Below, in pieces: positions 1,005 to 53,700 of a stretch of 53,756 nucleotides of DNA. Source of the DNA: Symploca sp. SIO2C1 (GTDB lineage Bacteria > Cyanobacteriota > Cyanobacteriia > Cyanobacteriales > Coleofasciculaceae); the NCBI GenBank assembly GCA_010692635.1, contig JAAHGL010000014.1:1-53756 (forward strand), in the 5' to 3' direction. The first letter of the stretch is position 1; each line of letters opens with the position of its first letter. Under the pieces are notes generated by a model. It searched no databases. It saw only the letters and a list, made by a program, of their open reading frames with translations, and was not told where the DNA came from. Position numbers and translations under genes: made by a program.

Positions 1005-2354
1005 ATGTCAAATGAGACAAAAACCCAGTCTCCTCATCACGTAGTAATAGTTGGTGGTGGATTTGGTGGACTTTATGCAGCCCAAGCACTAAGAAAAGCA
1101 CCAGTTAAAGTCACGCTTATTGATAAACGAAACTTTCATCTGTTTCAGCCTTTGCTTTATCAAGTTGCTACTGGCAAATTATCTCCTGGAGACATTTCCT
1201 CACCGTTGCGAGGGATACTCAGTCCCAATAAAAATACCAAAGTGCTGATGGGAGAAGTAACTGGTATAGACTCCAAACAACAGAAAATTCAACTGCACGA
1301 TGAAGAACTAAGTTATGATACCCTAATTGTTGCTACTGGGGTTAGCCATCATTACTTTGGCAATGACCAATGGGCACAGAAAGCTCCTGGCTTGAAAACG
1401 ATAGAAGATGCCCTAGAAATGCGGCGTCGTATTTTTTCAGCTTTTGAAGCGGCAGAAAAAGAAACTGACCCTGAAAAACGGCGTGCCTGGTTAACTTTTG
1501 TTTTGGTAGGAGGTGGACCAACAGGGGTAGAATTAGCAGGGTCACTAGCAGAACTAGCTTACCGTGCCCTCAAAGAAGATTTCCGTAATATCGACACCTC
1601 AGAAACCAAAATCTTGCTTTTAGAAGGGATGGATAGGATTTTGCCCCCTTATACCCTTGAATTATCAGCAAAAGCCAAAGCCTCACTAGAGTATTTGGGA
1701 GTCATGGTACAGACTGGCACTCTAGTTACCAATATTGAGGATAACTTGGTTACCATGCGTCGAGGTGAGCAAATTGAACAAATTTCAGCACAAACAATCC
1801 TTTGGGCAGCTGGAATGAAAGCATCTGGCATGGGAGCAGTGCTGGCAGAATCTACTGGTGTAGAACTTGACCGTGCAGGACGAGTAATAGTAGAGCCTGA
1901 TTTGAGTGTAACAGGACATCCGAATATTTTTGCGATCGGTGATTTGGCAAATTTTCCCCACCAATACGAAAATGGCAAATCCTTACCGGGAGTTGCACCA
2001 GTGGCAATGCAGCAAGGAAGCTATGTCGCACGTTTACTTAAGAAGCGACTACAGGAGAAGACTTTACCTTCCTTCCACTACAATGACTACGGCAGTTTGG
2101 CGGTAATTGGACGGAATGCAGCAGTAGCAGACTTGGGCTTTGTTAAGTTTGCTGGTTTTCCTGCTTGGCTGGCATGGGTTTTTATTCACATTTTATTTTT
2201 GATTGAATTTGATAATAAACTGTTGGTGATGATTCAGTGGGGCTGGGATTATTTAAGTCGCCAAGGTGGAGCTCGTCTAATTACAAATCAAAGCCGACAG
2301 CCACCTAAGGCAGTGGAAGAAGAAGAGAATCATCAAACACCAGTCAAGGTGTAA
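1005..2354 (+). CDS. ndbA: Type II NADH dehydrogenase (NDH-2, pyridine nucleotide-disulfide oxidoreductase).
   Basis: N-terminal FAD fold HVVIVGGGFGGLYAA. Second dinucleotide motif FVLVGGGPTGVELAG. C-terminal amphipathic/membrane tail. 449 aa. Confidence 0.8.
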   Translation: MSNETKTQSPHHVVIVGGGFGGLYAAQALRKAPVKVTLIDKRNFHLFQPLLYQVATGKLSPGDISSPLRGILSPNKNTKVLMGEVTGIDSKQQKIQLHDEELSYDTLIVATGVSHHYFGNDQWAQKAPGLKTIEDALEMRRRIFSAFEAAEKETDPEKRRAWLTFVLVGGGPTGVELAGSLAELAYRALKEDFRNIDTSETKILLLEGMDRILPPYTLELSAKAKASLEYLGVMVQTGTLVTNIEDNLVTMRRGEQIEQISAQTILWAAGMKASGMGAVLAESTGVELDRAGRVIVEPDLSVTGHPNIFAIGDLANFPHQYENGKSLPGVAPVAMQQGSYVARLLKKRLQEKTLPSFHYNDYGSLAVIGRNAAVADLGFVKFAGFPAWLAWVFIHILFLIEFDNKLLVMIQWGWDYLSRQGGARLITNQSRQPPKAVEEEENHQTPVKV

Positions 2355-2481
2355 TATCATATCCGGTTGAATAACCTGAAGGTGGGCACTGTAGATCCAA
2401 AATAGTGTCTCTCCTATGTCTGCTCTCTAGAGCAGCGATAAAACTGTAGTACTAACGCTTTCCTTTAAGAGTGCAACTACT

Positions 2482-4383
2482 ATGAGAATTTTGCTAATCG
2501 AAGATGATCACGAGCTCCGTATTAGCCTTGGCGATGCTTTAGCTAAACAAAATTACATTATTGATATAGCTGGGGATAGTCAAGAGGCTTTACACTTCCT
2601 AGATACTTTTCGCTATGATTTGCTGCTATTAGATATTGTGCTGCCTGGGGTTGATGGCATTACCTTCTGTAGGCAATTGCGCTCCCGTGGCTTCAAGATG
2701 CTGATTTTATTACTAACTGGCAGAGATGCTACTACTGATAAAGCCAAAGGTTTAGATGCAGGAGCCGACGACTACTTAATCAAACCCTTTGATTTGCAAG
2801 AGTTACTAGCTCGGATTCGTGCCTTACTCAGACGAATAAATTATCCCCTCCTCTCAACCCTAGAATGGGGTGAATTATCTCTAATACCCAGTAATAATGA
2901 GGTTACCTATCGCGATCAATCTTTAGATCTTACCCCAACAGAATATCATCTATTAGAGCTATTTCTTCGTAACAGTGATCGGATATTTGGCTACGATGAT
3001 CTGATCCAACACCTGTGGTTTTTTGAAACTCCTCCTACTGAAAACACTATCAGATCTCATATTAGAGGGTTGCGAAATAAGCTAAAAGCAGCGGGAGCTG
3101 GACGTGATTTAATTGAGACTATTTACGGTTTGGGTTATCGACTTAAGCAGGGAGAGAAAGCTGGAGATATAGGGGAGACAAAGATACAAAGATACCAGAA
3201 AAATATCCCCAACCTCCAGTCATTTTCTAACAGGGAACAACAAACCTTAGCAGCACTGCGACGCAGTTGGGAACATTTCAAAGACAGTGTTTTTGAGGAT
3301 ATAGCATTCTTGGAGGAGATTGCTATGAATGTAGAAAGATTGCAAACCAGTTTTCTTCGTTCACGAGCCATCAGAACAGTTCATAATCTGGTGGGATTAT
3401 TGGGGAGTTTGCGTTTGGCTGAAGCTACCAAGATTTGCCGTGAAATTGAAAATTTGTTCCTAACTAAGACACCTCTAAACTCAGAGCAGGTATTGCGGTT
3501 TGAGGAACTTTTAGCTACATTACCTCAGGTATTGGATCCACAGTCTTCCACAATTTTTGCTCCAAGGGAGCCATCTTCAATAGAAATACAAGGAAAGCGT
3601 CCTTTAGTATTAATCATTGATGATGATACAGAGCTCACTCAACAGTTACATAAACTAGGGAATGATTGGGGAATTCAGGTAGAGGAAGCCTCCAGCTTAT
3701 CCGTTGGTAGAGAAGAAATTGAACGTATTGATCCGGATCTAATTATTTTAGACTTGATCTTTCCCAACGAAATTGAAGATGGTTTAACGTTCTTAGCCGA
3801 ATTAAGTATCCTGAAACCTTCTATACCTGTCTTAGTACTAACAGTGCGTGGGGAGTTGAGCGATCGCCTACAAGCTTCAAGAGCAGAAGCTGTTGCTTTT
3901 TTGCATAAACCTTTTTCCCTAGAACAAATTCTGATAATGGTTTATCAAACTCTGCAACAATCTGGCTCCATGTCAGGGAAAATATTGGTAGTGGATGATG
4001 ACCCTACATTTCTCTCTTTGTTGCGGGATAGATTGGAGTCAAAAGAACTCCAAATCACTACCCTTACTGAGCCCCAACATTTCTGGGAAACTTTAGAAAC
4101 AGTATCACCAGATCTACTGATTTTGGATCTGATCATGCCTGATTTAGATGGCATTGAATTGTGCCGCGTAGTACGCAACGATCCTCAGTGGTACGAGCTA
4201 CCCATTCTATTTCTTACAGGTTATTCCAATCGAGGGAATATGCAACGATTGGTTGCTGCTGGTGCTGATGATTTCATTAGTAAATCAGTATTAGGCTTGG
4301 AACTACAGACTCGTATTTTTAGTCATTTGCAGCGAGTCCGACGGTTGAGACAAATGTCTGGAATTAGGAAAATCAAGTATTAA
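2482..4383 (+). CDS. Multi-domain response regulator with REC, OmpR-type winged helix, HPt-like, REC, REC domains (RcaC-like architecture).
   Basis: Residues 1-120 form a receiver (EDD...LLLLDIVLPGVDG...KPF). Residues 125-225 form an OmpR trans_reg_C domain (LTPTEYHLLELF...TIRSHIRGLRNKL...GLGYRL). Residues ~240-350 are helical with TVHNLVGLLGSLRL, a candidate HPt His. Two C-terminal receivers follow (LVLIIDDD..LIILDLIFP..HKPF and ILVVDDDP..LLILDLIMPDLDG..SKS). Confidence 0.7.
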   Translation: MRILLIEDDHELRISLGDALAKQNYIIDIAGDSQEALHFLDTFRYDLLLLDIVLPGVDGITFCRQLRSRGFKMLILLLTGRDATTDKAKGLDAGADDYLIKPFDLQELLARIRALLRRINYPLLSTLEWGELSLIPSNNEVTYRDQSLDLTPTEYHLLELFLRNSDRIFGYDDLIQHLWFFETPPTENTIRSHIRGLRNKLKAAGAGRDLIETIYGLGYRLKQGEKAGDIGETKIQRYQKNIPNLQSFSNREQQTLAALRRSWEHFKDSVFEDIAFLEEIAMNVERLQTSFLRSRAIRTVHNLVGLLGSLRLAEATKICREIENLFLTKTPLNSEQVLRFEELLATLPQVLDPQSSTIFAPREPSSIEIQGKRPLVLIIDDDTELTQQLHKLGNDWGIQVEEASSLSVGREEIERIDPDLIILDLIFPNEIEDGLTFLAELSILKPSIPVLVLTVRGELSDRLQASRAEAVAFLHKPFSLEQILIMVYQTLQQSGSMSGKILVVDDDPTFLSLLRDRLESKELQITTLTEPQHFWETLETVSPDLLILDLIMPDLDGIELCRVVRNDPQWYELPILFLTGYSNRGNMQRLVAAGADDFISKSVLGLELQTRIFSHLQRVRRLRQMSGIRKIKY

Positions 4384-4392
4384 GGATGAAGT

Positions 4393-6645
4393 ATGAATGG
4401 GAAATTCGCCATGGAGAATGAAGAATTACTAACTGCTCGCCAGTTAACATCCTCTATGCAAATCAATAATTTTGAGGAAAGGTTGCGAAGTATCCTCAAC
4501 ACTACCACTGAGTCAGTAATTTTGGCAGATCTTCAAGGAATCATTCTAGTAGCCAATGAAACTTTTGCTCAAAGATTAGGTAAGAGGATTGATGAAATTA
4601 TCGGTATGTGCATTTACGATCTCTTTCTACCTAAGCTACCCAACTTGAGAAAGGTCAGATTTGATGAGGTTGTGCAAACGCGCTCACCTATCCATTTTGA
4701 AGATAGGTGGAATGGTATACGGCTGGATAACTTGATCTATCCAGTGTTTGATGCTCAGGGAAAAGTTGCCAGATTTGCAGTTTTTTCCCGCGACATAACT
4801 GAGCATCAGCAAGCAGAAGAGTCCCTCAAACAGAGTGAGGAAAAGTTCCATCAGTTTGCAGAACATATCCGAGAATTATTTTGGATGTATGACCCTATTT
4901 TAGGTATTACTAAAAACATTATTAATCACAAACAAGCAGAAGAGGCGGTACGTAAGCTAAATGAAGAGTTGGGGATTACTGTAGCAGAAAGAACCATCTA
5001 CCTAGGGAGTGCCATTGAGAAATTGCAACAAGAGATTGTTAGACGCAAACAGGTGGAAGATGCATTAAGAGCAACTCAAGAACGCTTCCAATACCTTATT
5101 GCCTCCAACCCAGCAATAATCTACTCCTGTCATCCTGATGGCGATTACCCCACCACCTTCGTTAGCGAGAACAGCAAAGATATTTTAGGCTACACTACTC
5201 AAGAATGGTTAGCCGATCCTAAGTTTTGGGTGAACCGGATTCATCCTGAAGATGCTCCTAGAATCTTCGCTAACTTGTCTCCCTTGTTTGAGGAGGGACG
5301 CGATATCCATGAATACCGCTTCTTGCATAAAAATGGCACTTATCGATGGCTACGGGATGAAGCGAAATTGGTGCGAGACGAAGCTGGTTGTCCTTTAGAG
5401 ATGATTGGTTCTATAGTTGATATTAGTCCTCAAAAACACATAGAGCAGGAACTCCAAGCCAGCCAACAGAAATACAAAACCCTATTTGAAATTTTGCCTA
5501 TTGGGGTTTCTATCACCGATAAAGTAGGCAATATCATAGAAGCTAATCCAGCCTCAGAGGAGATTTTAGAAATATTAGGTGTACAGCAGAATCACCTAGT
5601 AGATAGGACAAATAAGGGAGGTAAGGAGACGCGGAGATTGGAAGACAAGGGAAATAAAGTGCTATGTACTAATACAACTCAGTATCAACAACAAATTATT
5701 CGACCTGATGGCAAACCGATAGTAGCTTCAGAGTTTGCCTGTAAAAGAGCCTTAAAAGAAAACAAAACAATTCAAAATGTAGAAATGGGAGTAGTCAAAC
5801 CAGAGCAGGAGACTACTTGGCTAAGTGTAACAGCTGCACCTATTCCCCTTAAAGATTATGGAGTAGCGATCGCCTACGTTGACATCACAGAGCGCAAAAA
5901 AGTAGAACGAATGAAGGATGAGTTTCTGGCGATCGCTAGCCATGAACTCCGTACTCCCCTTACTTCCCTACGGGGTTCCCTCGGATTACTTGCCACTGAA
6001 CGACTCGGCAACCTTACAGAACAAGGTCAACAGCTGTTAGAATTTGCGTTGCTGGACACTGAACGCTTGGTGCGTCTGGTTAACGATATCCTTGACCTTA
6101 AGCGTCTCAAGTTTGGCAAAAACGTTATCACCCCAAGTATTTGTCAGACACTTGAGCTAATTGAGCAAGTGATGCAAGTCATGCAACCCATCGCAGATTA
6201 TGCAGGGGTGAAGCTTTCAGTTGCTCGGATTTCAACTCCCGTGTTGGCAGATCGCGATCGCATCATCCAAGTTTTGACTAACTTGCTGAATAATGCTATT
6301 AAATTCTCCCCTCCAGGTAGTACAGTCTGGCTGAGTGCCGAACCTGGCGAGATACGGGAGACAAGGGAAACATTCCCAATTCCCAATTCCCAATTCCCCA
6401 ACATCTTATTTAAAGTTAAAGATCAAGGAAGAGGGATTCCCTCAGATCAACTCGAAAAAATCTTTGAACCTTTCAGACAGGTAAATGTCTCTGACTCTCC
6501 TCAAAAAGAAGGTACTGGCTTAGGTTTAGCCATTTGTCGCAGTATTGTGCAGCAACACGGGGGACGTATCTGGGTTGAAAGTACCCCCGGAGTTGGTAGT
6601 ATTTTCTACTTTACTCTGGCGATGTCGCCAGAAAAAAGTCTCTAG
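4393..6645 (+). CDS. Multi-PAS sensor histidine kinase (HisKA + HATPase_c).
   Basis: Repeated PAS-like blocks. H-box: FLAIASHELRTPLTSL. N-box: LTNLLNNAIKFS. G-boxes: DQGRGIP and GTGLGLAICRSIV. 750 aa. Confidence 0.85.
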   Translation: MNGKFAMENEELLTARQLTSSMQINNFEERLRSILNTTTESVILADLQGIILVANETFAQRLGKRIDEIIGMCIYDLFLPKLPNLRKVRFDEVVQTRSPIHFEDRWNGIRLDNLIYPVFDAQGKVARFAVFSRDITEHQQAEESLKQSEEKFHQFAEHIRELFWMYDPILGITKNIINHKQAEEAVRKLNEELGITVAERTIYLGSAIEKLQQEIVRRKQVEDALRATQERFQYLIASNPAIIYSCHPDGDYPTTFVSENSKDILGYTTQEWLADPKFWVNRIHPEDAPRIFANLSPLFEEGRDIHEYRFLHKNGTYRWLRDEAKLVRDEAGCPLEMIGSIVDISPQKHIEQELQASQQKYKTLFEILPIGVSITDKVGNIIEANPASEEILEILGVQQNHLVDRTNKGGKETRRLEDKGNKVLCTNTTQYQQQIIRPDGKPIVASEFACKRALKENKTIQNVEMGVVKPEQETTWLSVTAAPIPLKDYGVAIAYVDITERKKVERMKDEFLAIASHELRTPLTSLRGSLGLLATERLGNLTEQGQQLLEFALLDTERLVRLVNDILDLKRLKFGKNVITPSICQTLELIEQVMQVMQPIADYAGVKLSVARISTPVLADRDRIIQVLTNLLNNAIKFSPPGSTVWLSAEPGEIRETRETFPIPNSQFPNILFKVKDQGRGIPSDQLEKIFEPFRQVNVSDSPQKEGTGLGLAICRSIVQQHGGRIWVESTPGVGSIFYFTLAMSPEKSL

Positions 6646-6716
6646 AAATGCTTTAGGCAGTTTCAAGACTAAATCTGTGTTGAGAGAGACAATATTCCTT
6701 GCAAAATTATCTAACC

Positions 6717-7094
6717 ATGACAACTAAAAAAATTTTAATTATTGATGATGAATACCGTATCCGGGAAGTTATTAAGATGAGTTTAGAAATGATGGCAGGA
6801 TGGAAAGTATTAACCGCTAGTTCAGGTAGTGAGGGTTTAGCTATTGCCCAATCACAGCAACCTGACGCTATCCTCTTGGATATGATGATGCCTGATCTTG
6901 ATGGAACTCAAACCTTGGCAAGATTGCAAGCTGATACCACTACTCAGCAGATCCCTGTGCTGTTGCTAACTGCCAAAGCTCAGCCCATTGAACAGAAACA
7001 GCTGAGTGAGGGAGTACGAGCAGTGATGCAGAAACCCTTCGATCCTTTGCAATTGGCTAACCTGATAGCAGAAGCTTTAAGCTGGGCTCTTTAA
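6717..7094 (+). CDS. Single-domain CheY-like response regulator.
   Basis: MTTKKILIIDDE...AILLDMMMPDLDG...LLTAK..QKPF. The ORF track starts at 6699. The ATG at 6717 gives the canonical receiver N-terminus. Confidence 0.75.
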   Translation: MTTKKILIIDDEYRIREVIKMSLEMMAGWKVLTASSGSEGLAIAQSQQPDAILLDMMMPDLDGTQTLARLQADTTTQQIPVLLLTAKAQPIEQKQLSEGVRAVMQKPFDPLQLANLIAEALSWAL

Positions 7095-7258
7095 CTCTGA
7101 CAGCTAAAAGCAAGTAGGCTCTAGCATTGAGCGTTGATAAATAAAAATTCTCTTCAAGTCTCTCGATCTGCACAAGTTCTGCACAATTACCAACTAAGCT
7201 GAGGAGCAATTTGGCAAGTATAGAACTAGATCTCAGGCTTGAGCCTTATAAAAAGTAA

Positions 7259-7759
7259 ATGATTAAAGGAAATATTCTAATTGTTGATGATACTTGGTTA
7301 GACTTGATTGCTTTAACTAGAACCCTAACGACAGAAAGCTATAAAGTTCGGACAGCTGAGAATGGGCAGATAGCATTGAAAATTGCCAAGCTAGACCCTC
7401 CCGAACTGATTTTGCTCAATATTAGTATGCCAGGAATGAATGGCTATCAAGTCTGCCAACACCTCAAAGCTGATGTCCGAACTTGTGAAGTACCAGTGAT
7501 TTTTATCAGCACTCTGAATAATGTGGTGTATAAGGTAAAAGCTTTTGACGTTGGTGGCGTAGACTACATTATCAAGCCATGGTTTGATCAAGAGGTTTGT
7601 GCCCGTATCCAAAATCACCTGAGAATCCACAGACGGAAACAGTTACTCATCAAGCAAAATGCCCTGCTGCGAGAGCAAAATGCCTTGCTAAAAGATGAGA
7701 TACGTAAATTAGAATCTTGGCAAATAAGGAGTTTTTGTATTTCTGCTGACCTAAACTGA
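7259..7759 (+). CDS. Receiver-domain protein with a C-terminal coiled coil. The phospho-acceptor Asp is replaced by Asn (N54).
   Basis: IVDDT acidic pocket and K in IIKPW are present. The D site reads ELILLNISMPGMNG (codon AAT at 7418-7420). Paralogous to the N-terminal receiver of the hybrid kinase at 50286-52157, which reads LLDIKMPQMNG. Confidence 0.7.
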   Translation: MIKGNILIVDDTWLDLIALTRTLTTESYKVRTAENGQIALKIAKLDPPELILLNISMPGMNGYQVCQHLKADVRTCEVPVIFISTLNNVVYKVKAFDVGGVDYIIKPWFDQEVCARIQNHLRIHRRKQLLIKQNALLREQNALLKDEIRKLESWQIRSFCISADLN

Positions 7760-7789
7760 GCACAAGAATACAGGAGTTGAAGAGTTCAG

Positions 7790-7850
7790 GATTGATTAAT
7801 TATCAATTATCAATTATCCATTATCCATTATCCATTAGTAATTGATATTA
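7790..7850. repeat. Tandem heptamer array (AATTATC / CATTATC), STRR-like.
   Basis: gattaattatcaattatcaattatccattatccattatccattag, read directly from the sequence. Confidence 0.6.
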
Positions 7851-8062
7851 GTTATACAAATTGCAGATCCAAGGTATTACTACTCATGTCTTTGGGGGTA
7901 AGCAAATGGTATTTAAATCAATGTAAATTGGTATAAGAATTGTCATTAATTACCAGTTAATCTCGTTAAATGATGCAATGTTTCAATAGTTATTGACCAT
8001 TTTCAATGGAACAATTATCAATTTTCAGAGGACTTACTACTCTATAGTGTTGATTTCCTCTT

Positions 8063-8998
8063 GTGGGGATATCAAGGTTGCAAAAATTTATAATCAAACT
8101 AGTTATGTGCATTACAGGTTACCTAACAGACTTTTCCTTGCCAGAAATTTGTCAGTTGCTTGACAAAGGGCATAAAACTGCTTTGCTGAGGATTTATGCC
8201 TGCCTCCCAACTCCAATATCCTTGAGCAGAGTTCATTATATTTGGGTGTACCACGGCCGCATTGTAGCCATAGCTAAGCGGTTAGATGATCAGGGTTTAG
8301 TTTCACTAATTGTTCAAAGTCGGTGGATCAGCTCTCGTGCCTTCACTAGATTAATTCAACAATGCTCAACTAATCAACCTTTAGGTTCATACCTCAAAAG
8401 TCTAGGTGTGTTGCAAAGCAAACAACTGAAATGGTTATTTCAAGTGCAAGTTTTAAAGTCGATGTGTGCTTTGTTTCAACTCCAAGCAGGTAAATTCCAA
8501 ATCGACTTTAATGTGCCACTACCGACACGAGAAATGACAGGCTTGAGTATACCAACAACAGCGGCGACATTAATCGGGTTACGAGCGCTGACAAATTGGG
8601 ATGCCTTAGTCGATAAATTGCCTGCTCCTGACAGCAGTTTGGTAACTGTTATTTCCAGTAAATACCACTATCGATTAAGTACTCTAGAGTTGCAGATTTG
8701 GAAATATGCCAATGGAAAGACTTCTCTGAGTGCAATCGCCAAGCAGCTAAGACTACCTGTAGAAAAAGTGCAACAGATTGCATTTGAATTGATCGCAGTG
8801 GGTTTAGCAGAAGAAGTCCCCTTACTAATTTCTACTAGAGCTATACCAGTCGCTGAGCCTTTAGGTAGAGGATTGCCCGAAGAAACTTCCAAATCAAACC
8901 TCACTCAATCATTCATACAAAATTTAGTGGGTTTCTTGAGTAGTAAAGTGACAGCTCCCGTCGCTAAATCAAAAATTATAGCGCCGGCTTCTCGCTGA
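8063..8998 (+). CDS. Hypothetical protein with a probable DUF4388-type N-terminus.
   Basis: N-terminal GYLTDFSLPEICQLLDKGHKTALLRI resembles the DUF4388 signature (G.L..F.LPDLLQLL...KTG.L.V). Sits beside receiver genes. Start codon uncertain. Confidence 0.45.
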   Translation: MGISRLQKFIIKLVMCITGYLTDFSLPEICQLLDKGHKTALLRIYACLPTPISLSRVHYIWVYHGRIVAIAKRLDDQGLVSLIVQSRWISSRAFTRLIQQCSTNQPLGSYLKSLGVLQSKQLKWLFQVQVLKSMCALFQLQAGKFQIDFNVPLPTREMTGLSIPTTAATLIGLRALTNWDALVDKLPAPDSSLVTVISSKYHYRLSTLELQIWKYANGKTSLSAIAKQLRLPVEKVQQIAFELIAVGLAEEVPLLISTRAIPVAEPLGRGLPEETSKSNLTQSFIQNLVGFLSSKVTAPVAKSKIIAPASR

Positions 8999-11135: not shown

Positions 11136-11948
11136 ATGACTTCTGATTCTGCTGAACAATCACCAGTTTCTACTGAACAATCACCGGTTTCCACAGTTTA
11201 CCCCAGTGACACGGCAGTAGATTGTCATATACAAATCCGTCTCAAACGGGAGGGAGAGCAGTTACTATTAATCTTGCCTAAGTCAGCAGAAATGCCTGAT
11301 GAAGCAACTTGGCTTGATCTTTGGCAACAGCTAAAACATCGTCTTAATTCCGGTGAGCGCTTTTGGCAGGAGAACACAATAGTACATTTGATGGCGAATG
11401 ATCAGTTGTTGGATGCACAGAAACTACAAGCCATCGCAGATGCTCTGAGTGAAATCCAGCTAAAACTACACCGGGTTTTTACCAGCCGACGGCAAACAGC
11501 TGTTGCTGCAGCTACTGCGGGTTACTCAGTCGAACAACAAACTATTATTAATTCTCTCCATAAAAACCCTGTTGAATCTACCGAGTTGCTCGCAGAACCT
11601 CTATACTTACAAACGACAGTGCGATCTGGTGTTGAAATTCGCCATCCCGGCACTATTGTTATACTAGGAGATTTAAATCCTGGTGGCACAGTAATCGCTG
11701 CTGAAGATATCTTCATTTGGGGGCGTCTGCGGGGCATTGCTCATGCCGGTGCTAGTGGTAATCGAACTTGTCGGATTATGGCTCTGCAAATGGAGCCAAC
11801 CCAGCTACGGATTGCCGATGCGGTAGCTAGGGCACCAGAAACACCACCATCTCAGTTCTATCCTGAGGTGGCTTATATAACCTCCAATGGCATTCGCATT
11901 GCCAGAGCCCTTGATTTCTCTAAGACCAACTTTTTGTTGAATTCATGA
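11136..11948 (+). CDS. minC: Septum site-determining protein MinC (cyanobacterial long form).
   Basis: C-terminal MinC beta-helix domain GTIVILGDLNPGGTVIAAEDIFIWGRLRGIAHAG. Directly followed by minD with a 4-bp overlap. The N-terminus carries a 21-bp tandem duplication (EQSPVST x2). Confidence 0.8.
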   Translation: MTSDSAEQSPVSTEQSPVSTVYPSDTAVDCHIQIRLKREGEQLLLILPKSAEMPDEATWLDLWQQLKHRLNSGERFWQENTIVHLMANDQLLDAQKLQAIADALSEIQLKLHRVFTSRRQTAVAAATAGYSVEQQTIINSLHKNPVESTELLAEPLYLQTTVRSGVEIRHPGTIVILGDLNPGGTVIAAEDIFIWGRLRGIAHAGASGNRTCRIMALQMEPTQLRIADAVARAPETPPSQFYPEVAYITSNGIRIARALDFSKTNFLLNS

Positions 11949-12742
11949 GTCGCATTATTGTTATTACCTCCGGCAAAGGAGGGGTAGGGAAAACTACTGT
12001 TACTGCTAATTTAGGTATGGCGATTGCTAAATTAGGTCGCCGAGTTGCTCTAGTGGACGCAGATTTTGGTCTGAGAAACTTGGATTTACTGTTGGGGCTA
12101 GAAAATCGGGTAGTTTATACTGCAGTTGAAGTCCTAGCTGGTCAATGTCGTTTAGAGCAGGCTTTAGTAAAAGACAAGCGACAGGAAGGACTAGTTCTAT
12201 TACCCGCTGCTCAAAGCCGCACCAAAGAAGCAGTTAGTCCTGAGCAAATGAAAAAGCTTCTTGACCTATTAGCGAAGAAATACGAGTACATCATAGTTGA
12301 TTGTCCTGCAGGAATTGAAATGGGCTTCCGCAACGCGATCGCTGCGGCATCAGAAGCTTTAATTGTTACTACCCCAGAAATTGCTGCTGTGCGTGATGCT
12401 GATAGAGTTGTCGGCTTACTAGAAGCCAACAGCATTAAAAAAATTAATCTAATTGTCAACCGCCTGAAACCGTCAATGGTGCAAGCAGATCAGATGATGT
12501 CGGTTCAGGATGTCCAAGAAATTCTCGCTATTCCCCTCATCGGTGTTATTCCCGACGATGAACGGGTTATTATCTCCAGCAACCGGGGTGAACCCCTAGT
12601 AATAGAAGAAAAACTTTCCCTGCCTGGGATAGCAATCAATAACATCGCCCGTCGTCTAGAAGGTGATAAACTTCCCTTCCTCGACTTGATGGCGGAACAC
12701 GACAACTTGATCAATCGCCTCCGTCGTATGTTCCGCAGCTAA
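11945..12742 (+). CDS. minD: Septum site-determining ATPase MinD.
   Basis: Deviant Walker A SGKGGVGKTT. 265 aa. Position in the minCDE cluster. Confidence 0.9.
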   Translation: MSRIIVITSGKGGVGKTTVTANLGMAIAKLGRRVALVDADFGLRNLDLLLGLENRVVYTAVEVLAGQCRLEQALVKDKRQEGLVLLPAAQSRTKEAVSPEQMKKLLDLLAKKYEYIIVDCPAGIEMGFRNAIAAASEALIVTTPEIAAVRDADRVVGLLEANSIKKINLIVNRLKPSMVQADQMMSVQDVQEILAIPLIGVIPDDERVIISSNRGEPLVIEEKLSLPGIAINNIARRLEGDKLPFLDLMAEHDNLINRLRRMFRS

Positions 12743-50285: not shown

Positions 50286-52157
50286 TTATCCTTGTACCTT
50301 ATACAGGGGAAAAGTAGGATAACTAGTATTTACTGGAATTTCCACAATGAATTCTGTTCCCTGCCCTTCAACAGAAAAACAACTGAGTTTACCACGGTGT
50401 CTTTCTACCACAATTTGATAGCTGATAGATAATCCTAAACCAGTACCACTTCCCACCGGCTTCGTAGTAAAAAATGGTTCAAAAATTCTGTGGATAACTT
50501 GCTCATTAATTCCTGGACCGTTGTCTGCAATCCGAATCACAACTTTTTCTAATATTTGTGATGTTTGATGAGGCAATTTTATGCCAGTTTTTTTTGTACT
50601 AATCCAAATTTTAGGATTCAACGATTGTTTTTTGTTTGGCTTTATTGACCATTTGCGATTAACCATTAATTCTGACAAGCTATTTTTAGCAAAGGGAGGC
50701 GCTAGAGCATCTATGGCATTACTCAGCAAATTCATAAAAACCTGATTCAACTCGCTGGCGTAACAACTCACTAGAGGAAGTTGACCGTATTCTTTAATTA
50801 CCTCAATAGAGGAATGGTTGCCCACTGCTCGCAATCTATGTTGTAAAATGAGTAAGGTGTTGTCGATGCCTTCATGAATATCTACAGGTTTGAGAGCTGA
50901 TTCACTCTGTCTAGAAAAGTTTTTTAGGGAGGAAACAATCTCTCGAATGCGCTCAGCTCCCACCTGCATGGAATGGATCAATTTTTGCCAATCTGATACC
51001 AGAAAATCCAACTCAATCTCCTCCGTTAACTCCTCAATTTCTGGTGTCGGATTAGGGTAAGTTTGTTGGTAGAACTGAATTAGGTCAATGAGGTCTTGGA
51101 AATATTTACTAGCAGGATCAAGATTGCCATAAATAAAGCTGATTGGGTTATTAATTTCGTGGGCTACACCTGCAACCATTTGTCCGAGACTAGACATTTT
51201 TTCACTTTGAACAAGTTGAGATTGTGTTCGCTTTAATTCATTTAAAGTGAGTTCTAGTTGAGTTGCCTTGTCTCGCTCTCGTGCTTCTGATTGTCGCAGA
51301 GCTTCCTCAACTTGTTTGCGTTGGGTGATATCTTGCGCCACCCCAAAGAATTTCCTTAGTTGTCCCCATTCATTTAAGATAGGTTCTCCCTTTGCCTCAA
51401 TATAACGGATAGAACCATCAGGTCGTACAATCCGAAAGTCTAATTCACAGGACTTGCTCGTTGGTTTAAAAGGACATTCTGTTAAACTAAGCCAGTGAGT
51501 TAGGGTTTGTTCCATCAACTCTCGGTCATCGGGATGAATTAGCTGGAGGTATTCGATATAAGATGGTTCAGGTTGGCTAAAATCAAGACCAAAAATGCAA
51601 AATAGTTCTTCTGACCAAGTAAATTGCTGGGTGAGTAAATCAAATTCCCAGTTGCCAAAATGAGCAACTCTTTGAGCAGCTAGCAGTTTGGCTTCAGAGC
51701 GACGTAATGCTGTCTCCGCTTGCTGGCGATCGCAAATTTCTTGTTGAAGATGTTTTTTTTGCCTCCGAATGGTTAGTTGATGCTCAATACGAGCTAAAAT
51801 CTCTTGTTCATGAAAGGGTTTAGTAATGTAGTCTGCACCACCCACATCAAAAGCTTTGACTTTGTCCAAAACATCATTAAGAACGCTCAGGAATATCACC
51901 GGAATCTCTCGTGTCTGTTCCGAGGCTTTCAATTCTCGACAGACTTCATAGCCATTCATCTGTGGCATCTTAATGTCGAGCAAAATCAACTCTGGTGGAG
52001 TTGAGTGTACTACCTTCAATGCTAGCAAGCCGTTAATTGCCCTCTTTACCTGATATCCGTATTTTGTGAGTATTTTAGATAAAAGGCGTAGGTTTTCTGG
52101 TATATCATCAACAATGAGAATTGTGCCTTTAGTAGCTGACTTTTGATTGCTATTCAT
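50286..52157 (-). CDS. Hybrid response-regulator/histidine kinase (N-terminal REC, coiled coil, PAS, HisKA, HATPase_c).
   Basis: Receiver IVDDIP...LILLDIKMPQMNG...ITKPF. PAS block. H-box VAGVAHEINNPISFIYGNL. N/G boxes NLLSNAIDAL, DNGPGI, GTGLGLSISYQIV. Confidence 0.85.
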   Translation of the reverse strand: MNSNQKSATKGTILIVDDIPENLRLLSKILTKYGYQVKRAINGLLALKVVHSTPPELILLDIKMPQMNGYEVCRELKASEQTREIPVIFLSVLNDVLDKVKAFDVGGADYITKPFHEQEILARIEHQLTIRRQKKHLQQEICDRQQAETALRRSEAKLLAAQRVAHFGNWEFDLLTQQFTWSEELFCIFGLDFSQPEPSYIEYLQLIHPDDRELMEQTLTHWLSLTECPFKPTSKSCELDFRIVRPDGSIRYIEAKGEPILNEWGQLRKFFGVAQDITQRKQVEEALRQSEARERDKATQLELTLNELKRTQSQLVQSEKMSSLGQMVAGVAHEINNPISFIYGNLDPASKYFQDLIDLIQFYQQTYPNPTPEIEELTEEIELDFLVSDWQKLIHSMQVGAERIREIVSSLKNFSRQSESALKPVDIHEGIDNTLLILQHRLRAVGNHSSIEVIKEYGQLPLVSCYASELNQVFMNLLSNAIDALAPPFAKNSLSELMVNRKWSIKPNKKQSLNPKIWISTKKTGIKLPHQTSQILEKVVIRIADNGPGINEQVIHRIFEPFFTTKPVGSGTGLGLSISYQIVVERHRGKLSCFSVEGQGTEFIVEIPVNTSYPTFPLYKVQG

Positions 52158-52617: not shown

Positions 52618-53700
52618 TTAACCATTGATTACAGGAGCGGTTAGTGCAACTGGAGCTGCTTCACCTGCTGCCAAATCTAAGGGGAAGTTGTGAGCATTAC
52701 GCTCGTGCATTACTTCAAATCCTAAGTTGGCGCGGTTGAGCACATCTGCCCAGGTTCCTACTACTCGTCCTTGTGAATCAATTACACTCTGGTTGAAGTT
52801 GAATCCATTCAGGTTGAACGCCATGGTGCTGATTCCCAATGCTGTGAACCAGATACCGATTACTGGCCATGCACCTAAGAAGAAGTGCAAGGAACGGCTG
52901 TTGTTGAATGAAGCATATTGGAAGATCAAACGACCGAAGTAGCCATGAGCTGCCACGATGTTGTAGGTTTCTTCCTCTTGTCCAAACTTGTAGCCGTAGT
53001 TCTGAGACTCACTCTCTGTAGTTTCACGAACCAAAGAAGAGGTTACCAAAGAACCGTGCATTGCACTGAACAGTGAACCACCGAATACACCTGCTACTCC
53101 CAACATGTGGAAGGGGTGCATTAGGATGTTGTGCTCTGCTTGGAACACGAACATGAAGTTGAAGGTTCCGCTGATACCCAAAGGCATTCCGTCGGAGAAG
53201 CTACCTTGACCGAGAGGGTAGATTAAGAATACGGAGGTAGCTGCGGCTACAGGAGCACTGTAAGCAACACAGATCCAAGGACGCATTCCTAAGCGATAGC
53301 TGAGTTCCCACTGACGACCCATGTAGGAGAAGATACCAACGAGGAAGTGGAAAACAACTAGTTGGTAGGGACCACCGTTGTAGAGCCACTCATCCAAGGA
53401 AGCAGCTTCCCAGATGGGATAGAAGTGCAAGCCAATGGCGTTAGAAGAAGGAACAACAGCACCGGAGATGATGTTGTTGCCATAAAGCAAGGAGCCAGCA
53501 ACAGGCTCACGGATGCCATCAATGTCCACAGGAGGAGCAGCGATGAAGGCAATGATGAAGCAAGTGGTAGCAGTGAGTAAGCAAGGGATCATCAATACAC
53601 CGAACCAGCCGACATAAATGCGGTTGTTGGTGGAGGTGATCCAATTGCAGAACTGCTGCCAAACAGAAGCGCTTTCGCGTTGCTGTAGGGTAGTAGTCAT
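52618..53700 (-). CDS. psbA: Photosystem II D1 protein, copy 2 (Q130).
   Basis: [34 protein letters not shown]... 360 aa. About 95% aa identity to copy 1. MGRQWELS gives Gln130. Confidence 0.95.

Follow-up and report, generated by a model that had tools for sequence, protein, structure and literature searches.

A stand-alone receiver without its phospho-acceptor aspartate in an RcaC-like gene cluster of Symploca and Caldora

Known aspartate-less receivers and the Symploca protein

Pseudo-receivers represent several percent of receiver domains, and the switching of the bacterial ones is largely unknown (PMC12632262). In these aspartate-less receivers (ALRs), the acceptor residue is most commonly replaced by Glu (26 %) or Asn (16 %); an acidic residue persists at the second position of the acidic pair in only 29 % of them, and most retain the T/S, Y/F and K residues (PMC4395418). 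Many pseudo-receivers are dimeric independently of phosphorylation (PMC12632262). The gene considered here encodes a receiver of 166 residues with Asn in place of the acceptor Asp. It lies on a contig of 53,756 nucleotides (JAAHGL010000014.1) from a metagenome-assembled genome (MAG), Symploca sp. SIO2C1; this whole stretch of DNA is referred to as the window. An NCBI protein entry under that organism name is 100 % identical to the product.

The protein is an ALR by definition and matches the known pattern of the class closely. It is a PF00072 domain without the acceptor Asp, the replacing residues are Glu and Asn, the acidic pair reads D-N in one clade, and the T/S, Y/F and K positions are kept; dimerisation without phosphorylation is expected. 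It departs from the class in being a single domain followed by a short zipper without effector, in displaying either Asn or Glu within one young and narrowly distributed orthogroup, and in its apparently repeated loss. Its particulars are modest: a stand-alone receiver-plus-zipper, turnover of the acceptor within this young orthogroup, a candidate operator and natural loss variants. With natural Asn and Glu variants and natural knock-outs that keep the relay, it offers a small and tractable case in which the question of decoy versus adaptor can be tested directly. In genome annotation, it does not belong among the phosphorylatable response regulators.

The best relative of solved structure was PleD of Caulobacter crescentus (E 8e-20 with its first receiver, REC1). 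In the alignments, Asn54 of the Symploca protein fell opposite the acceptor Asp of REC1 and opposite an Asn of REC2, the receiver of PleD that lacks the Asp. This second receiver works as an adaptor in dimerisation and does not accept the phosphate (PMC12632262). That adaptor is internal to a REC-REC-GGDEF enzyme, whereas the pseudo-receiver stands alone without GGDEF, is nearer to REC1 and carries a zipper of its own. In FrzS of Myxococcus xanthus, a pseudo-receiver is followed by a coiled coil through which dimerisation is predicted, and the protein recruits SgmX without phosphorylation (PMC1974792, PMC9811614, PMC12632262). Its likeness to the present protein is architectural, since FrzS displays Ala at the acceptor position and an extensive coiled-coil domain, in contrast to the zipper of ~33-45 residues on a helix of ~56 residues (~5 heptads) encountered here. 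The acceptor Asp is also replaced in RitR of Streptococcus pneumoniae (Asn) and in the plant PRR/TOC1 proteins (Glu), the activity of which is phosphorylation-independent (PMC4395418, PMC5965902, PMC12632262). These proteins differ by their DNA-binding or CCT output domains, RitR being moreover redox-switched through a Cys of its linker, and neither is composed of a zipper only. In WspR and WpsR, the stalk that follows the receiver mediates oligomerisation. The receivers of WspR and WpsR with their extended alpha5 stalk superpose on the predicted model of the Symploca protein; WspR, however, retains the acceptor Asp and a GGDEF output, whereas the pseudo-receiver ends after the helix.

Acceptor residue, fold and selection

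The gene and the residues that define it were located as follows.

7,259-7,759, + strand: pseudo-receiver gene (166 amino acids plus stop), REC fold with C-terminal helix, Pfam PF00072; four orthologous lineages, each of exactly 166 codons
7,286-7,291, + strand: GAT GAT, encoding D10 and D11 (IVDDT), the acidic metal-binding pair; kept in the window, GAT AAT (D-N) in the Glu clade
7,418-7,420, + strand: AAT, encoding Asn54 at the phospho-acceptor position, by direct reading and by alignment with orthologues and PleD
7,508-7,510, + strand: Ser84 (VIFIS), the conserved T/S position, invariant in the orthogroup
7,565-7,576, + strand: Y103-I-I-K106 (DYIIKPW), the aromatic switch residue and the conserved Lys, invariant in the orthogroup
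7,625-7,723, + strand: leucine zipper of residues 123-155, with I123, L130, L137, L144 and L151 at d positions and K127, N134, N141 and I148 at a positions (heptad scoring)

Pfam Response_reg (PF00072) matched residues 6-117 with an E value of 5.7e-24 and 84.9 bits (cut-off 30.2). The Asp that ends strand beta3 in canonical receivers was missing, Asn54 standing in the context ELILLNISMPGMNG and the sister clade displaying Glu. The remaining active-site set (D10, D11, S84 and K106) was present in the window protein, the acidic pair being D-N in the Glu-clade orthologues. The original prediction, made from the letters of the window, had described a 166-residue receiver with Asn (AAT) for the acceptor Asp, an acidic pocket and a conserved Lys; the open reading frame (ORF), the codon and the Pfam match all agreed with it, and D10, D11 and K106 were in place. 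No specific curated family was found in NCBIfam, where matches to PleD, RpaB and PhoB receivers were all sub-threshold. A Pfam match to Rab_bind (E 0.0024, below cut-off) was dismissed as coiled-coil noise.

Only two close relatives were found among 5.8 billion proteins, P0002 (74 % identity) and P0003 (69 %), each 166 amino acids long. Both displayed Glu at the acceptor site, reading LILLEINLPERNG, and IVDNT at the acidic pair. Seven contigs, from different assemblies, carried identical copies of P0002, and a single contig carried P0003. With the downstream gene as anchor, a genome scan uncovered a fourth lineage, a Caldora sp. MAG (L008), with a 92.8 % identical copy. The acceptor codon was AAT in the window and in L008, and GAG in the two Glu lineages (L001 and L007). 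No additional orthologues emerged from a profile search of 1.84 billion representatives, the list of which was dominated by multi-REC proteins, or from a metagenome scan, which returned paralogues only. All 80 nearest non-orthologous metagenomic receivers (44-59 % identity) displayed Asp at the acceptor site, as did 405 of the 420 related REC domains of proteins fetched by the exhaustive profile search.

Two objections had been foreseen with the original prediction, namely a sequencing error at codon 54 and orthologues uniformly carrying Asp. The former was excluded by the identical AAT in the independently assembled Caldora MAG, and the latter failed before the Asn, Asn, Glu and Glu of the four lineages. 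Conservation of Asn throughout the orthogroup, which the same prediction had proposed to look up in an alignment, was ruled out, the sister clade carrying Glu and lacking the second acidic residue as well. Loss of the Asp, seen in four lineages and nine assemblies, is a stable trait of the orthogroup, neither an error nor a private mutation; with the codon reproduced independently and no orthologue displaying Asp, the designation as a true pseudo-receiver was upheld. AAT and GAG differ at two positions, and the sole one-step intermediates between them are GAT (Asp) and AAG (Lys). The simplest history would be that of an Asp-bearing ancestor from which the residue was lost independently in the two clades.

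The AlphaFold2 model, computed from an alignment of 35 sequences, displayed a (beta-alpha)5 fold with a fifth helix predicted to run unbroken from residue 110 to 165 (pLDDT 95.9). Foldseek comparisons with this predicted model gave a probability of 1.00 to RpaA, PleD, RR468 and PhoB, with rmsd values of 0.8-1.7 Å. The model also superposed on the receiver-plus-stalk of WspR and WpsR over 146-151 columns including the long helix (TMq 0.79-0.82). The C-terminal coiled coil that had been noticed earlier was supported by helix 110-165 of the model and by the five Ile/Leu residues at d positions. Both Asn residues at a positions, N134 and N141, were invariant in the orthogroup. Asn at a positions of a leucine zipper is the classic mark of a parallel, in-register dimer of the GCN4 type. 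On these heptads, a constitutive dimer through the zipper is rather probable.

Every one of the nearest sequence relatives was the N-terminal receiver of a dimeric output protein (REC-PAS-kinase, REC-kinase, REC-(PAS)-nucleotide cyclase and REC-PP2C phosphatase), which is why the protein looks like the receiver-plus-signalling-helix module of such proteins minus the output. Two of the related receivers, P0004 and P0022, ended in a conserved tail rich in Cys (LLPxCxxC...HGICPxC), which appears to be a small zinc-binding output module fused to this receiver subfamily.

Conservation was unequally distributed along the protein. The loops of the phosphorylation pocket were its least conserved parts, with nine of 20 positions invariant across the four lineages, against 17 of 20 for the same loops of the adjacent CheY-like gene in the same lineages. 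Between the Asn and the Glu clade, these loops read DDT/DNT, NISMPGMN/EINLPERN, STLNN/SDLKT or SALKT, and KPWF/KPCR. Best conserved were the strands, helix alpha3 (nine of ten positions invariant) and the C-terminal helix (23 of 33, residues 123-155).

Values of dN/dS were obtained by the Nei-Gojobori method with bootstrap confidence intervals (CIs).

Pseudo-receiver gene, window versus L001: 0.31 (bootstrap 95 % CI 0.19-0.50)
Pseudo-receiver, residues 111-166: 0.17-0.25
Pseudo-receiver, residues 123-166: 0.16-0.26
Pseudo-receiver, receiver core: 0.40-0.56
CheY-like gene: 0.09-0.18
PatA_N gene, downstream: 0.12-0.28
RcaC-like gene: 0.15-0.29

Between clades, the dN/dS of the pseudo-receiver gene reached 1 in 0 to 0.1 % of bootstraps. 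Start and stop were conserved across lineages, as was the upstream spacing. The gene is maintained by selection, since its frame is exactly 166 codons without indels in all four lineages at dS ~0.4-0.5, and the constraint is borne mainly by the fold and the tail, not by the catalytic pocket. Between the window (7,259-7,756) and L008 (7,185-7,682), dS was 0.033, four- to five-fold below that of the flanking genes (0.13-0.15), on few sites; recent recombination of this segment between the two lineages is possible.

Gene cluster, upstream repeat and history of the gene

The neighbourhood of the gene displayed the following features.

2,482-4,383, + strand: RcaC-like regulator, REC-wHTH-HPt-REC-REC by Pfam, with the acceptor Asp in all three receivers; syntenic
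4,393-6,645, + strand: PAS / HisKA / HATPase histidine kinase (Pfam)
6,717-7,094, + strand: CheY-like single-domain receiver with intact active site, in an RcaF-like position
7,137-7,213, + strand: conserved non-coding block holding the repeat (blastn and alignment), retained in L009 and L011, both without the gene
7,168-7,185, + strand: direct repeat CTGCACA-AGTT-CTGCACA of 11-bp period, candidate operator of an OmpR-class (RcaC-like) regulator, 74 nt upstream of the ATG
7,214-7,841, + strand: presence/absence segment (~630 bp) holding the gene, replaced by ~130 bp in L009 and L011
8,105-8,998, + strand: PatA_N (DUF4388/PATAN) protein with a weak wHTH match, directly downstream (Pfam and alignment)

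The mechanical ORF starts GTG 8,063 (PatA_N) and TTG 6,699 (CheY-like) are probably wrong, orthologues beginning at ATG 8,105 (MCITGYL) and at 6,717 (MTTKK).

All four gene-bearing lineages displayed the same order: NDH-2, RcaC-like regulator, PAS kinase, CheY-like receiver, pseudo-receiver and PatA_N. The identity of the three upstream genes, as originally read, was confirmed by Pfam, and their association with the pseudo-receiver gene by this synteny in four of four lineages. The cluster recalls the RcaE-RcaF-RcaC system by context only, in that it groups the genes of a kinase, a single-domain receiver and a REC-wHTH-HPt-REC regulator. It differs by a regulator with three receivers, one more than in RcaC, and by the pseudo-receiver itself, a component not known from the Rca system. 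No phycobiliprotein genes adjoined the cluster. In the kinase (4,393-6,645), Pfam detected PAS, HisKA and HATPase_c only, and no GAF domain or cyanobacteriochrome. As the kinase has PAS but no GAF, the cluster is an Rca-like relay by architecture and not a demonstrated chromatic-acclimation system.

In Allocoleopsis franciscana (L095, CP003630, 6,532-9,894 compared with 1,005-8,998 of the window), NDH-2 and PatA_N adjoin with no two-component genes between them, for which reason the whole relay cassette seems to have been inserted in the Symploca/Caldora lineage. At another locus (L094, 5,456-9,879), a 61 %-identical PatA_N homologue was found beside a second PatA_N gene, a Ras-like small GTPase and a Roadblock/LC7 protein (an MglA/MglB-like pair), which hints at a PatA_N family working with polarity or motility GTPases.

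The operators bound by OmpR-class winged-helix regulators usually consist of direct repeats spaced by one helical turn. The repeat at 7,168-7,185 was the sole exact match to TGCACA-N5-TGCACA in the window (53.7 kb; estimated chance expectation ~0.002), and it occurred once per locus with the same 74-nt spacing in L001, L007 and L008. It resembles the L box of RcaC (TTGCACA-N4-TTGCACA), a likeness that serves as a lead only. RcaC is known to bind L-boxes in target promoters (PMC8256508). As the gene stands behind this conserved, OmpR-class-like candidate repeat, the pseudo-receiver may be an output of the relay, beyond a modulator of it. Nothing terminator-like was found on the + strand between the pseudo-receiver gene and PatA_N in a search for intrinsic terminators, so that their co-transcription is possible.

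Relay genes beside PatA_N but without the pseudo-receiver were encountered in Caldora sp. SIO3E6 (L009), Symploca sp. SIO1C2 (L011), a JGI metagenome contig (L092) and Symploca sp. SIO2G7 (L093). Symploca sp. SIO2E6 (L010) displayed PatA_N and no receiver gene upstream on its short contig. In L009 and L011, the flanks 7,137-7,213 and 7,842-8,104 were conserved and the repeat was kept with one mismatch; it lies there ~416 nt upstream of PatA_N. In L092 and L093, the absent stretch was larger and took in the repeat. No remnants of the gene were detected in the spacers of the empty sites (tblastn, E up to 100).

In small neighbour-joining (NJ) trees of NDH-2 and PatA_N rooted on Allocoleopsis franciscana, the Glu clade was the first branch (nodes at 99-100 % bootstrap for NDH-2 and 81 % for PatA_N), and the Asn clade was nested among gene-less lineages. 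The simplest reading of these trees would be an ancestral gene followed by at least two, probably three, independent losses; recombination is a possible alternative source of the patchy presence. A recent gain by insertion was disfavoured by the basal Glu clade, by the position of the Asn clade among gene-less lineages and by the differing structures of the deletions. The gene is dispensable, as it was repeatedly lost in sister lineages.

Heptanucleotide tandem arrays were observed in the spacer between the CheY-like gene and PatA_N: AATTATC repeated 5.7 times in the window (7,798-7,837), GCTGAGG-like repeated ~40 times in L011 (~6,960-7,220), and TTGACTG-like in L093 (8,640-8,710). Such arrays may promote repeated deletions.

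Proposed role and alternatives

The best overall reading, to which we assign a probability of roughly 55 %, is that of a pseudo-receiver without phosphotransfer, dimerised by its zipper, dosed by transcription and acting by contact in the neighbouring relay. Its parts are not equally firm. Independence from phosphorylation is very probable: with Asn or Glu at the acceptor position, drifted pocket loops and a conserved fold and alpha5 extension, the single domain would stand outside phosphotransfer. Asn at the acceptor normally mimics the 'off' state, and Glu sometimes the 'on' state. Tolerance of both suggests a function that has ceased to depend on the state of the pocket. The alpha5 extension would form a short parallel leucine zipper and hence a constitutive homodimer, comparable to the receiver-plus-stalk of WspR-, PleD- or REC-kinase-type proteins without the output domain, the activity of which would be governed by abundance and not by phosphorylation. 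That this dosage is set by the RcaC-like regulator, encoded 2.9 kb upstream and acting on the promoter through the candidate repeat, possibly on PatA_N as well, is put forward tentatively.

The contacts of such a dimer are more doubtful. A decoy or modulator role is plausible, and the protein might act inside the relay as a non-phosphorylatable competitor for the PAS kinase or for the HPt domain, or as an adaptor to PatA_N; the odds are against any one of these partners taken singly. It would in any case be an accessory part, since the relay and PatA_N persist without it in no fewer than four related lineages. A further, rather speculative version is that of an induced feedback element, in which the active RcaC-like regulator would bind the repeat and the zipper-dimerised look-alike so produced would titrate the PAS kinase or HPt, or couple the relay to PatA_N. 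If this were true, only docking and dimerisation would matter, so that the acceptor could drift (Asp to Asn, Asp to Glu) and the module could be easily gained or lost.

Several observations weigh against the overall reading. Helix alpha1, the usual kinase-docking face, was invariant at only six of 13 positions, which disfavours a tightly co-evolved kinase partner. L092 and L093 keep PatA_N without the repeat, and expression of PatA_N consequently needs no repeat. The operator reading leans partly on the likeness to the L box. Lastly, the gene was repeatedly lost across related lineages, selection on it is looser than on the neighbouring genes, and the comparison between the window and L008 gave a dN/dS of ~1.06, from 3.5 synonymous differences (CI 0.38-4.4).

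These last points also bear on the best placed of the rival explanations, according to which the gene is a decaying fragment: a truncated duplicate (receiver and linker) of a gene of REC-output type, functionless and heading for loss. The protein has indeed no output domain, while all its nearest relatives have one; its active-site loops have drifted, its dN/dS exceeds that of the neighbours (0.31-0.47 versus 0.09-0.29, and ~1.06 for the window versus L008), and the gene was lost in at least four related lineages through differing deletions. A decaying fragment would, however, hardly have kept an intact frame of 166 codons without indels in four lineages at dS ~0.4-0.5, together with its start, stop and upstream spacing; the between-clade dN/dS was significantly below 1, the tail (0.16-0.26) was constrained like the neighbouring genes, and the one high value rests on the 3.5 synonymous differences mentioned above. 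Decay is considered improbable.

Somewhat less likely still is a dedicated partnership with the hybrid kinase encoded 43 kb away, either as a heterodimer with its receiver and linker helix or through competition for the phosphodonor.

50,286-52,157, - strand: REC-PAS-HisKA-HATPase kinase, the N-terminal REC of which is 51 % identical to the pseudo-receiver over 159 amino acids (E 7e-47) and displays Asp at the aligned site

The identity with this kinase includes the linker, the REC-helix architecture is common to both proteins, and the kinase REC was the NJ sister of the pseudo-receiver orthogroup. That grouping, however, had a bootstrap of 14 %, and by distance the kinase REC ranked 28th of the 115 receivers compared, metagenomic receivers attaining up to 53-59 % identity against its 51 %. 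The subfamily is moreover large, with more than 5,200 cluster representatives matching at E<1e-30. On reading of the sequences, the kinase linker lacked the double-Asn register of the zipper, having no Asn at the matching a positions, and the double-Asn motif, as a mark of a possible heterodimer partner, was found in no other ORF of the window. The two genes lie far apart, while synteny with the RcaC-like cluster is conserved. The paralogy claimed in the original prediction therefore stood at the level of the receiver subfamily (51 % identity), and its extension to a close or cognate link is weak (28th of 115, 14 % bootstrap, linker without double Asn). A special functional tie to this kinase is no more than a possibility, and so, at 14 % bootstrap for the NJ sister position, is an origin of the pseudo-receiver by duplication of the kinase REC.

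A sensor still switchable by some other input (another phosphorylated residue, a pocket ligand, or redox at C114 and C160 as in the Cys-dependent RitR) is equally unlikely: S84, Y103 and K106, through which the pocket is coupled to the alpha4-beta5-alpha5 face, show no variation, both cysteines are common to the orthogroup (C114 being Leu, Thr or Glu in paralogues) and ALRs with alternative inputs are on record (PMC4395418, PMC12632262), but the divergence of the pocket loops between the Asn and Glu clades (ISMPGMN/INLPERN, TLNN/DLKT or ALKT, KPWF/KPCR) argues against a conserved ligand site, no conserved Ser, Thr or Asp stands beside position 54 (S56 is Asn elsewhere), and both Cys residues occupy heptad positions b and f, off the zipper interface.

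Elsewhere in the window, an ORF at 46,771-49,413 (- strand) encoded a full-length homologue of the Major Vault Protein (880 amino acids; Pfam Vault, Vault_2/3/4 and MVP_shoulder; E 7e-65 and 2e-54). Proteins of this kind occur mainly in eukaryotes. MinC was identified in the region 11,136-12,742 (+ strand; Pfam MinC_C, E 6e-32), the next ORF being MinD-like by eye, and an ORF at 52,618-53,700 (- strand) was, also by eye, PsbA/D1-like. Housekeeping genes confirm the cyanobacterial chromosomal context of the window.

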